DNA from: an uncultured Chloroflexia bacterium
GTDB taxonomy: Bacteria; Chloroflexota; Limnocylindria; Limnocylindrales; CSP1-4
NCBI GenBank assembly: GCA_963712745.1
Contig: CAVQJC010000004.1
Coordinates: forward strand, 160,001-224,000
DNA: 64,000 nt
Direction of reading: 5' to 3'
Below are positions 39,586 to 42,830 of this stretch, in pieces; the first letter of the stretch is position 1, and each line of letters begins with the position of its first letter. Both the position numbers and the translations under genes were made by a program. The notes under the pieces are model-generated. The model worked only from the letters and a program-made list of their open reading frames with translations, made no database searches and was not told where the DNA came from.

Positions 39586-40290
39586 CTACTCCTCCGCGGG
39601 TTGCCCCGAGCCGGCGTCCTCGAGCGCGGTCACGCGCTCGTCCAGGTCTTCGACGGCCTTCTCGGTGTCCTTGAGGCGGTTGCGCACGTTGACCACGTTG
39701 ACGTCACCCACCTGCTCCTGCAACTGGTCGACATCCGAGCGGAGCTGCTGGACCTCGGCGTCGATTCGGGCGACGGTCGCACTCAGCTCGCCGACGTCCG
39801 ACGGGCCATAGCGCTTCGTCAGCGTCACGGTCGGGGCGTGCTCCGACTCGACGTCGCCGCATCGCTGGACTACCGGGAATTCGATGACCGCGTCCTGCTC
39901 GTCAGGGAAGCGGGCTCTGAGGCCGAACTCCAGTAGCTGCCCGTCGTCCAACGAACCATCGCTCCAGAGGACCACCGTGAGCGCACCCTCGTCGTCGGGC
40001 TCCGCCCCTTGGTCCTCGTCGTTCGCCGGCACGCCCACGAAGAGCTCCCAGCCGGGCATCGCCTCCGGGGTCGGATTGGTGACGTTCTCCGGTACCGTGA
40101 CCTCGAGCTCGTTCGTCGGCAGGCCATCGCAGCCCGACGTGACCTGGAAATGGATGAGGAACGTACTACCGGGCGTCACGGCGCCACCCTCCGGGATGTT
40201 GACCGCGCTGGCCGGGAGTGCAGCCCCGATGAGGAGCGTTGCCAGTGCAACCGCGACGGCGACCCGGCGCGAGGCTAGATGTCGTTTCAC
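39586..40290 (-). CDS. YcnI/DUF1775-like secreted protein with C-terminal coiled coil
   Basis: Signal peptide; F.V..GC, P.AMPGW, W..G, F...ARFP and FPVVQ.C pattern. Confidence 0.7.
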   Translation of the reverse strand: MKRHLASRRVAVAVALATLLIGAALPASAVNIPEGGAVTPGSTFLIHFQVTSGCDGLPTNELEVTVPENVTNPTPEAMPGWELFVGVPANDEDQGAEPDDEGALTVVLWSDGSLDDGQLLEFGLRARFPDEQDAVIEFPVVQRCGDVESEHAPTVTLTKRYGPSDVGELSATVARIDAEVQQLRSDVDQLQEQVGDVNVVNVRNRLKDTEKAVEDLDERVTALEDAGSGQPAEE

Positions 40291-40624
40291 GTGCTCTCTC
40301 CGGTAAGGGTGGCTGGGCCGCCAATCGTAGTCGCCCGGCCGGTGGCGCGCTCGAAGGCATCGCCCGTGCGCTCCTTGCCGCCGAGTGCCGCGACTTCCCC
40401 ATCGATGGACTCGAAGGGGCCACCGGATACCCTCGAGCTGTTGATGGCGAGATCGACAGCGGAGGATGGCCCATGGCCCCGGTGGACAGTCTGGCACGCC
40501 TGCGCAAGGCACTCATCGACCCAGCCGAGCGGGGTGAGGCACCCGTGACCCAGGCCACGGCCGGTCGAGCAGAGCGGGGCCTCCGTCTGCTCCCGACTGG
40601 CTAGATACCCCAGGCCCGTAGCTG

Positions 40625-41840
40625 TCAAGCAGCAAGCTGCTCGAGGGGTCGACCCCAGGCCGTCTCCTCGTCGTAGCGGGTCCGATGCGTGAGGCAGCCG
40701 TGGAGGATGCCCACGAGCCTGTTGGCGAGCTTGCGACGGGCGGTCCTGGACGTGTGTGGTCCCGGGTCGTGGGCGTCGTAGTAGGCGCGGGCACCGGGTG
40801 ACGCGCTCAGGGCACAGAGGGCCCACTGGTACGTGGCATCGGCGAGCCGGCGGTTGCGCACGAGACGAGCCACGACGACGTGGCTCGTGCCCGATGCCCG
40901 CGTGATCGGGCTGGTGCCCGCGTAGTTGCGCCGGGCCCTAGCATCGGCATAGCGGTCGGGGGCATCCCCGAACTCCGCGAGCACCCGGGCGCCGAGGACA
41001 GCACCGAGTCCAGGCAGACTTCGCAGGATCTCGGCGTCCGGGTGACGATCGAAGGCATCGACGAGCTCGGCCTCGAGCCGGGCGATCTGCTCGCTCAAGG
41101 TCCTGATGACCGCCACGAGCGCGGTGGTGTTCGCCGCCTGGGCCTCGGCCACGAGCGCTGGAGCCGCCAGTTGTGGCGCCCGCAGGGCCGAGCGGATCTC
41201 GCTCGCCCGCTGCTCGAGGTTCCGCTGTCGGCCGCCCTTGCGCAGGAGCGAGACGGTCTTCGCCTGGCTGAGCTTGCGTCCGCGCACAGGATCGGGTGCC
41301 GCCATGAGCACCGCGGTCGCATCGGGGTGCGCGAGGTCCTCGAAGGCGACCATGGCCCCCGGGTAGTACTCGCGCAGGGCGCTGCGCAGCGCGTTGGTCT
41401 GGCGCCCCCGCGTCCAGATGAGGTTCTGGTGGGCCCGGGCGAGGACCTTGATGGCTGCCTGGAGCTCGCTGTCGGGGGCCACCCGACGATGATGCTGGCG
41501 GTCGGTGCGGACGAGATCGGCGAGGACCCGTGCGTCGCCCCGGTCGGACTTGGCCCGGCTCGTCGTATGGCGCTCGCGATATCTCGAGGCCGCGAGCGGG
41601 TTGACCGCATACACCCCGTACCCCGCCGCAAGCAGGGCGGTCACGAGCAGGCCCCGGTCGGTCTCGATGCCGACGATCACATCGGCCGGCTCGTCGGCAT
41701 GCTCACCGAGCAGCGCGTGCAGGCGGGCCACGCCCTCGAGGCCCTCGGGGATGCGCCTGGTCGCGAGCACCTCCCCCTCGCTGTCGAGCACGCAGACGTC
41801 GTGGTGCGTCTCGGCCCAGTCGATGCCGATGAAGATCGAT
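40625..41840 (-). CDS. IS110 transposase/recombinase (start appears to be AT[C]G at 41840)
   Basis: IFIGIDWAE, GIET, KSDRGDA (DEDD), LPGLG, AG..P.T..SG (catalytic Ser); GGAGGGAG RBS at 41843-41850. Confidence 0.93.
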
Positions 41841-41850
41841 CGCTCCCTCC

Positions 41851-42050
41851 ATCTCCGCTTCGGAGCCGCAGGAGGCGGTCATGGCGCCCTAATGGACCAG
41901 TGCTCATCGGCACGTCACCCCAGCAGCCATCTCGACCGTCCTCGCCGACCGCCGGGGGCACGATCTAGCCGTGGGACTCAGACGTCCTGACTCGGCCAGT
42001 GCTCACCCGGTGGTCCGGCTCGGCGACCAGTCTGAACCCTCAGTCCGGTC
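41851..42050 (-). ncRNA. Putative IS110 bridge RNA
   Basis: Four 7-nt segments match the target and donor half-sites (see findings); boundaries approximate. Confidence 0.7.
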
Positions 42051-42071
42051 TGGCCCATTAGACTCAGGCGT

Positions 42072-42830
42072 GTGAACCTCGCGACCGACCCTTCCGTCAT
42101 CCTGCTCGACGTGGGCGACACGATGGCCAAGGCCTATCCCTCCTGGCGGGACGTGTATGCCACCGTCTTCGCGCCCCACGGCATCCAGGCCGACGGAGAC
42201 GACTTCGAGGCCGCCTTCCGCGAAGCCTGGGCCGAGTGGGCACACGAAGGGCCCTTCGAGGCCACCGAGGAAGCCTCCTTCCAGCGGCTCATGGAGCTCG
42301 ACCAGCTGGTCTTCGACCGGCTCGGCTATCCGGATCTGCCGGAGTCGTTCTTCCGCGATGTCGACGCCGCGTTCCGGCAACGCTCCGCGTTCTATGTCTT
42401 CCCCGACGTCATCCCCGCGCTCGACGTGATGCAGGCAGCAGGCCTTCGTCTCGCCGTCGTCAGCAACTGGGGCTGGGCCGCCCCGGAGCTGCTGCAGACG
42501 CTGGAGCTGGCCCGCCACTTCGAGGTCATGAGCATCAGCGCTCGCGTGGGCTACCAGAAGCCGCACCCAGCGATCTTCGAGCACGCGCTCCACCTGCTGG
42601 GCGTGGGACCGGATGAGGCCATCCACATCGGGGACGATCCCCAGGCCGATGTCGTCGGCGCACGCCGAGTCGGCATCGAACCGGTGCTCATCGACCGCCG
42701 CGGCCGCATCGACACGCCCATCGGGGCCGGGTCTGGGACCGGTCAAGTGGCCCTCGTCCGCGACTTCTGGCAGTTGCTGGATCTGCTCGGGCTGGAGCGG
42801 CCGGCATCGATCGACGGGGATCAGGCCTGA
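42072..42830 (+). CDS. HAD-IA family hydrolase
   Basis: DVGDT, VVSN, KP and HIGD...D motifs. Confidence 0.9.
   Translation: MNLATDPSVILLDVGDTMAKAYPSWRDVYATVFAPHGIQADGDDFEAAFREAWAEWAHEGPFEATEEASFQRLMELDQLVFDRLGYPDLPESFFRDVDAAFRQRSAFYVFPDVIPALDVMQAAGLRLAVVSNWGWAAPELLQTLELARHFEVMSISARVGYQKPHPAIFEHALHLLGVGPDEAIHIGDDPQADVVGARRVGIEPVLIDRRGRIDTPIGAGSGTGQVALVRDFWQLLDLLGLERPASIDGDQA

Follow-up and report, generated by a model that had tools for sequence, protein, structure and literature searches.

The window analysed here is a 64,000-nt stretch of contig CAVQJC010000004.1 (positions 160,001 to 224,000, forward strand) from an uncultured Chloroflexia bacterium, assembly GCA_963712745.1. It holds an insertion sequence (IS) of the IS110 group, read on the minus strand between divergent genes for a DUF1775 protein (39586-40512, minus strand) and a HAD hydrolase (42072-42830, plus strand). 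Besides the recombinase gene, the element has a non-coding left end of 209 nt and a right end of 22 nt past the stop codon. The original prediction had proposed an IS110 element whose left end encodes a bridge RNA, and this was borne out by the protein family, the RNA helices and the covariation of guides with flanking DNA. Based on these comparisons, the locus very probably is an IS110-group element that encodes a bridge recombinase and, in its left end, a canonical IS621-type bridge RNA. The features of the element as a whole are as follows.

40603..42061, minus strand: IS110-group insertion sequence, delimited by a second near-identical copy and by the conserved ends of multi-copy relatives
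42060..42061, minus strand: left CT core
40603..40604, minus strand: right CT core; for both cores, CT alone is common to both ends over 46 distinct insertion sites
40625..41852, minus strand: recombinase gene with a DEDD RuvC-like domain and a Tnp Ser domain, based on Pfam, NCBIfam and a family profile
40623..40628, minus strand: TTGACA, putative -35 box of a junction promoter, in the right end and overlapping the TGA stop codon

A scan of genome contigs yielded 71 related loci with a protein identity of 44-83%, from metagenome-assembled genomes labelled Chloroflexia, Acidimicrobiia and Actinomycetota and from some actinomycete isolates. Together with the window copy (copy A) and two further copies, B and C, of the same genome, 74 sequences were examined. 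In 48 of these, a recognisable left terminus is present 180-300 nt upstream of the open reading frame (ORF), resulting in 38 distinct left ends and 46 distinct insertion sites. One relative is found in five copies (L051, L052, L072, L077 and L078), the flanks of which are 94-98% identical over at least 600 bases, indicating that this element is found again and again at one site of a repeated host sequence.

The ends were determined in part from copy B (L002, on another contig), which equals the window copy from GAGT-CT to CT-AG apart from two single-base indels. On the minus strand, the left junction reads cctgagTCTAatgg, with TCTA at 42062-42059, and the right junction ctggggtaTCTAgcc, with TCTA at 40605-40602. 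The element measures 1,457 bp from the C of the left core (42061) to the base before the right core (40605), the second CT (40604-40603) being extra. Across seven multi-copy families, including that of this element, the left end always starts with CT followed by AATGGG, and the right end finishes with TGGG(G/A)T(G/A)T followed by CT. At the 46 distinct sites of relatives, the base 5' of CT varies (C 20, G 14, T 7, A 5). A right flank is available for 39 sites, and the base 3' of CT in these is mostly A (A 31, C 4, T 3, G 1). TCTA is found at 6 of these 39 sites. Since only CT is common to both ends over the 46 distinct sites, the core is the CT dinucleotide and not, as first suggested, a shared core of four nucleotides. 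The T and A around CT in this element are, judging from these sites, a coincidence between target and donor.

The encoded protein matches the Pfam families PF01548 (DEDD_Tnp_IS110, 2.1e-39) and PF02371 (Transposase_20, 1.1e-14), and scores 186.6 bits against the NCBIfam model NF033542, ‘IS110 family RNA-guided transposase’, which has a cut-off of 140. A single-sequence phmmer search of the PDB gave no match and a profile was required: built from 15 family members, it matched the IS621 transposase (8wt6, E 6.3e-24) and the ISCro4 transposase (9t56, E 7.4e-22). Residues D11, E63, D103, D106 and S320, numbered on the 408-aa translation of 41851-40625, are invariant in all 15 family members and align with GID, E, D..D and SG of IS621 in the profile alignment. 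According to the description in PMC11208158, the catalytic residues of IS621 are D11, E60, D102, D105 and S241.

In the same gene, the Rfam family RF02464 (Actinobacteria sRNA Ms_AS-4) matches 40937-41018 on the plus strand with 71.2 bits (E 2.1e-10). This match is antisense to the recombinase gene and covers the conserved PGLG...AEFGD coding region. RF02464 may largely capture conserved IS110 coding sequence in antisense.

For the left end, the original prediction listed four motifs, CTGAGTC (41981-41975), GGCTAGA (41970-41964), CTGGGGT (41923-41917) and CCATTAG (41895-41889), which, like the junctions it quoted, were all found in place. Four ordered 7-mers in an end of about 200 nt are far beyond chance, with about 0.012 expected per 7-mer according to an estimate of the author made without a tool. 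When the 38 left ends are aligned, invariant blocks are seen to enclose two short segments of variable sequence. The covariation of guides with flanks among homologues, which had been suggested as a check, was analysed on this alignment by permuting the flanks among elements. The outcome was positive and confirmed three of the four guides named. The resulting RNA features are listed below in 5' to 3' order.

42022..42055, minus strand: 5' stem-loop SL1, which folds and has a sequence that varies among relatives
41999..42015, minus strand: 5' strand of the proximal target-loop stem, containing the invariant GAGCAC and pairing with 41947-41961
41989..41995, minus strand: left target guide (LTG) CCGAGUC, in the same sense as positions -6 to -1 of the left target flank (LT) plus the core C, placed by covariation
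41974..41987, minus strand: distal hairpin of the target-binding loop, GGAC-GUCUGA-GUCC, with compensatory pairs; its 3' arm contains the CUGAGUC of 41981-41975
41964..41971, minus strand: right target guide (RTG) CGGCUAG (41971-41965) followed by A41964, complementary to the core CT plus positions +1 to +5 of the right target flank (RT)
41926..41946, minus strand: 5' strand of the outer donor-loop stem, pairing with 41870-41885
41914..41923, minus strand: left donor guide (LDG) CUGGGGUGAC, in the same sense as right-end positions -9 to -1 plus the core C
41900..41913, minus strand: distal donor-loop hairpin GUGC...GCAC, with pairs 175-178:198-201 invariant in 36-37 of 37 sequences
41887..41895, minus strand: right donor guide (RDG) CCAUUAG (41895-41889) followed by the handshake bases G41888-G41887, complementary to CT plus AATGG

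The guide that was placed differently is the LTG. Positions 41995-41990 match LT -6 to -1 in 24, 22, 24, 28, 38 and 40 of 44 pairs, with permutation means of about 12 and the observed values being reached by 0-1 of 1000 permutations. C41989 lies opposite the core C in 41 of the 44 pairs. The original prediction had instead taken CUGAGUC (41981-41975), 14 nt further 3', as the LTG. With GGCUAGA (41970-41964) only 4 nt away and TCTA as the core, this would give a compact target loop and an RNA architecture distinct from that of IS621. For the window copy, with target ACACGCCTGAGT-CT-AGCCAGTC (CTGAGT-CT-AGCCA), such a reading is attractive, as CUGAGUC matches the left flank CTGAGTC in 7 of 7 positions, better than the upstream segment, which has one mismatch. 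The target of copy B, ATGTCACCGAGT-CT-AGGCGGCA (CCGAGT-CT-AGGCG), matches the upstream segment in 6 of 6 positions (CCGAGT-C being perfect), so that each candidate segment is perfect for one copy: CUGAGUC for copy A and CCGAGUC for copy B. However, copy B has a C in its flank where the compact loop requires a T. Across the family, moreover, the columns of 41981-41975 match the left flank in only 10, 8, 17, 12, 12 and 12 of 44 pairs, i.e. at the permutation means. The closest relatives keep (C/U/A)CGAG(U/C)C there, while their left flanks read AACCG, CATGA, CGTCG and TCATG.

The same segment is also accounted for by the RNA fold, being the 3' arm of a hairpin backed by compensatory changes at pairs 93:109 (GC 18, AU 9, GU 7) and 94:108 (GC 18, AU 14). 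The hairpin of 14 nt (41987-41974) lies between the LTG and the RTG, which are thus not 4 nt apart. The claim of a compact loop falls because a conserved hairpin arm was taken for the LTG, and because the LTG lies 5' of the hairpin, the target loop is an ordinary IS621-type internal loop. With the LTG reassigned, both internal loops that belong to the IS621 plan in place, the core reduced to CT and TCTA confined to the few sites given above, the distinct architecture was not upheld. The compact loop is already contradicted at the family level by these alignments, and for this element it is very improbable.

The placement of the RTG was confirmed by complementary covariation: 41971-41967 are complementary to RT +5 to +1 in 24, 30, 31, 36 and 36 of 37 pairs (z 5-9). 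Both right guides carry an invariant AG opposite the core CT. Another possibility might be that the left end is a protein-binding or translational leader, that the protein alone picks the target and that the guide-like matches reflect a fixed preference. Some parts of the left end are indeed invariant and do not covary (GAGCAC and GUGCC, each present twice), and most targets share CT-AG. A fixed preference, however, cannot explain the position-by-position covariation of two variable segments with both flanks across different targets. For example, RTGs complementary to CTTGTGGC, CTCTCGAC, CTTTTTC and CTCGTGGAA adjoin exactly those flanks. The homology to IS621 and ISCro4, which have been solved as transposases of the bridge-recombinase family, also argues against a leader, making this explanation barely credible next to an RNA guide.

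The two donor guides stand as originally placed, covarying wherever the donor ends vary (31 pairs). The LDG of this element matches its own right end at 8 of 10 positions, the mismatch at -2 being an rG.dT wobble. In the family, the LDG covaries with the right end at -9 (19 of 31), -8 (31 of 31; TT 28, AA 3), -4 (30 of 31; GG 13, AA 17) and -2 (28 of 31), and it carries a C opposite the first core base in all 31. The RDG covaries with the left terminus at +5 (27 of 31; CG 22, TA 5) and at +4. Its proposed extension to 11 of 12 nt is present in this element but is element-specific, since family-wide complementarity does not continue past +5 in the 31 donor pairs.

According to the description in PMC11208158, IS621 has handshake guides 3' of the RTG and RDG, which pair with the non-cognate DNA. 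Here, G41888 directly follows the RDG on its 3' side and complements target LT-1 in 27 of 37 pairs (z 6.0). A41964, which directly follows the RTG on its 3' side, does not vary and faces the invariant T at donor -1 (31 of 31). Judging from these pairs, each right guide is followed on its 3' side by one base that behaves as a handshake position. The order LTG-RTG-LDG-RDG given in the original prediction was likewise recovered, and the senses and order of the guides agree with the definitions as described in PMC11208160.

The secondary structure was predicted with RNAalifold on 37 left ends, with L087 left out. The consensus has 30 pairs, of which 16 show compensatory changes. Many of these are in the proximal target-loop stem (columns 65-80:123-138), e.g. 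at 71:130 with CG 11, AU 11 and GC 8. For the outer donor-loop stem, the mean duplex energy is -20.5 kcal/mol with the own strands versus -16.8 across elements, a mean reached in none of 2000 permutations. In the donor-loop test, pairs 6:208 and 7:206 were kept through two-sided changes in 1 and 5 sequences, respectively. G.U pairs are frequent, as at 65:138 in 29 of the 37 sequences, and therefore the minus strand is the RNA strand. With the guides held unpaired, the left end folds into the 5' stem-loop and two arms that each contain an internal loop, with 42021-42016 and 41868-41863 pairing as a basal stem.

Two motifs recur in this structure. GAGCAC(U) and GUGCC (42005-41999, 41961-41957, 41913-41909 and 41905-41899) occur twice each and are invariant or nearly so in the 37 left ends. 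The GAGCAC:GUGC helix is proximal in the target loop and distal in the donor loop, and in either loop GAGCACU is followed, and (C)GUGCC preceded, by a guide. It may be a protein-recognition helix that is used twice. An exchange of GAGCAC/GUGCC partners between the loops was considered and rejected, as the target-loop helix has a compensatory swap from A-U to U-A in 3 of 37 sequences while the donor-loop helix is unchanged. In L087, the left end (1239-1290) opens with its own terminus duplicated in tandem over 25 nt (CTAATGGGGATCGACC...), and part of the RDG is deleted.

Taken together, the left end would give rise to a bridge RNA of about 190 nt, from about 42055 to 41863 on the minus strand, consisting of a 5' stem-loop and two arms with an internal loop in each. 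The target-binding loop would present its two guides on either side of the 14-nt hairpin. In the donor-binding loop, the LDG (41923-41914) would recognise the right end of the element, and the RDG (41895-41889) would pair with the left terminus CT-AATGG, with recombination taking place at the CT core. Circularisation would then join the right-end TTGACA to T-CT-AAT and create a promoter for both RNA and recombinase. The junction so formed would read TTGACA, 17 nt and TCTAAT (40605-40603 joined to 42059-42057). All 30 distinct junctions of relatives have TTGA(C/T)N, 17-18 nt and then TCTAAT (29) or TCCAAT (1). The element ends, the protein family with its catalytic residues, the RNA helices and the guide-flank covariation are computed results; transcription, circle formation, the promoter and activity are inferred.

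Several observations weigh against a working bridge RNA system of the IS621 type. Guides and their natural targets match over short stretches: with the core C included, the contiguous LTG run has a median of 4 and a range of 0-9 over the 44 pairs, with some of the zero-length runs being alignment shifts. The base after the C of the LTG matches the core T in 14 of 44 pairs and the one after the C of the LDG in 0 of 31. The left guides thus cover only the core C, whereas the guides of IS621, as described in PMC11208160, each include both core bases. The relatives share ancestry, hence the permutation counts overstate significance. In Rfam 15, no bridge-RNA-like family matches the left end at E<=10. 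The -10-like TCTAAT lacks the usual A at position 2, and a scan of the integrated copy for consensus promoters and terminators found none of either. Neither a circle junction nor an empty site was seen in the contigs of four runs (DNA libraries X1 and X2, RNA libraries X15 and X16), where joints with sides shorter than 40 nt were ignored. Finally, as assembled, neither of the two near-identical copies has an intact recombinase gene.

The frameshifts were located in both copies. The window copy carries an additional A at 41836, as a result of which the ATG at 41852 is not in frame with the catalytic domain; the next in-frame start, GTG 41791, lies past the first catalytic Asp. In copy B, an additional T is present within the gene body, at the position corresponding to 41515. 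Each indel coincides with a GATC motif and disrupts the frame of the copy in which it is found. Near 41838, the extra base is missing from contigs of the two other DNA runs (one contig each, at a depth of 5.3 in X1 and 9.6 in X2). The same runs also have contigs over the 41515 region without the extra T, one of which (X2, 41426-41672) has a single substitution. Because X1 and X2 contigs are free of both extra bases, there is a version whose frame is open. Assembly errors or copy-specific mutations may account for the indels; their position at GATC may point to a methylation-motif basecalling error in the assembly.

These data bear on whether the element might be a decayed, inactive relic, with an inherited bridge RNA signature and neither copy mobile now. 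Besides the frameshifting indel in each assembled copy, such decay would fit the truncated relatives in the same genome. A search of this genome (20 contigs, 84.6% complete) gave six matches to the element, among which are three decayed relatives: copy C (L003), 3'-truncated and with 83% identity, a right-end remnant with 78% identity (L004) and a left-end piece of 63 nt (L005). The two mismatches of the LDG to its own right end, next to the core, would also fit. On the other hand, one of these mismatches is the wobble noted above, and 10 of 31 relatives also have a mismatch at the other position. Apart from the indels, the two copies do not differ over 1,465 bp, which makes the duplication a recent one. 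Moreover, both indels could be assembly errors given their GATC context, and the X1 and X2 contigs carry the open frame at both places. A relic is therefore considered unlikely, though with an appreciable chance of being right.

Beyond this genome, a left-end search of 201 host-family genomes revealed no further near-identical copy. Some left-end match was present in 14 of the 201 (G000 included), mostly to the conserved 35-40 nt after the RTG. Exact-pattern scans of metagenome contigs for the same guides, with a 43-mer spanning the target loop and with a 24-mer from the left terminus, retrieved 0 stretches.

The remnants show some further particularities. The solo left-end fragment at L005 1501-1565 stops exactly after GGGTGAGCAC, at the base preceding where the LTG would start. 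The right-end remnant at L004 1690-1740 is joined via CT to AGAGCGTGCC. Twelve bases at L004, CTAGAGCGTGCC, equal the RTG-plus-stem segment of the left end of copy C, in the same sense, and the L004 flank at the same time forms the 3' end of a 374-aa ORF on the opposite strand. The likeness of this flank to the copy C segment could be due to chance, or to recombination into guide-coding DNA.

One variant goes beyond the IS621-type reading. Left-target recognition in this clade may be flexible in register, through a bulge in the DNA or, for the window site, with the CUGAGUC arm as a second register. In the window copy, copy C, L049 and L027, the LTG match gains 3-5 bases if the target has one bulged nucleotide. 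Among the 44 pairs, genuine offset cases amount to 4 at +1, 2 at -1, 0 at +/-2, 0 at -3 and 1 at +3. The idea of a single-base bulge is weak, as 4 of 44 at +1 is too small a number, and register flexibility in general is improbable. If true, it would mean that natural bridge RNAs tolerate a DNA bulge or use alternative guide registers.

As for the surroundings, the left end lies exactly 10 nt upstream of an outward-reading start codon in both copies. These are the GTG at 42072 of the HAD hydrolase (gap 42062-42071) and, for copy B, the ATG of a 246-aa ORF at L002 2972 (gap L002 2963-2971). Among relatives, 5 of 46 left flanks have an outward-reading start at a distance of 9-10 nt, and offsets in a similar range (10-15 nt) are found in 6 of 39 right flanks. 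Contigs of the RNA library X16 span both junctions of the window copy (41983-42156 and 40470-40620), although contigs cannot demonstrate transcription.

The element is a clean natural example, in which the sequences of two copies and about 40 relatives suffice to read the four guides, the handshake positions and the CT core. The IS621 architecture is thereby shown to hold in a clade of high-GC environmental bacteria far from the IS621 of E. coli. The analysis also corrects a plausible misreading, in which a conserved hairpin arm happens to resemble the target. Thousands of IS110 orthologues have already been analysed according to PMC11208160, the supplement of which may already list the bridge RNAs of this clade; a literature search on bridge RNA and actinobacterial IS names turned up nothing specific. 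No new question is raised, and the recombinase is already named RNA-guided by NCBI protein models. The practical value lies in one more orthologue family with defined guide positions for the mining of bridge recombinases.

Among known systems, IS110, IS117 and IS900 are actinobacterial elements of the IS110 group from high-GC hosts, which insert site-specifically without a long target duplication. IS900 inserts between the ribosome-binding site and the start codon. The position of both copies 10 nt upstream of a start codon resembles this, but relatives are rarely found at that distance. The IS1111 group and its seekRNA share a DEDD recombinase and an RNA guide with the present element. However, as described in PMC11208160, IS1111-group elements have the RNA in a long right end together with long subterminal inverted repeats, whereas here the left end is the long one. 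The ISCro4 transposase (9t56), compared by protein alone, is matched by the family profile over both domains.

The closest resemblance is to IS621 of E. coli, as far as it is described by Durrant et al. 2024 (PMC11208160) and Hiraizumi et al. 2024 (PMC11208158). Both elements encode a two-domain recombinase in which the five catalytic residues are the same, carry the RNA in a long left end and have the guide order LTG-RTG-LDG-RDG. In both, the left guides have the sense of the top strand and the right guides are complementary, and each guide pair flanks an internal loop with a distal hairpin. They also share the CT core, a handshake base 3' of each right guide and a right-end -35 box that would meet a -10-like box at the circle junction. 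In contrast, the protein similarity to IS621 is detectable only by profile, and no similarity of the RNA was found in Rfam or otherwise at the sequence level. Unlike in IS621, the covarying guides of this family measure 6+1 nt (LTG) and 5+2 nt (RTG), and one invariant GAGCAC:GUGC helix is shared by the target loop, where it is proximal, and the donor loop, where it is distal. The hosts differ as well, being high-GC environmental bacteria.

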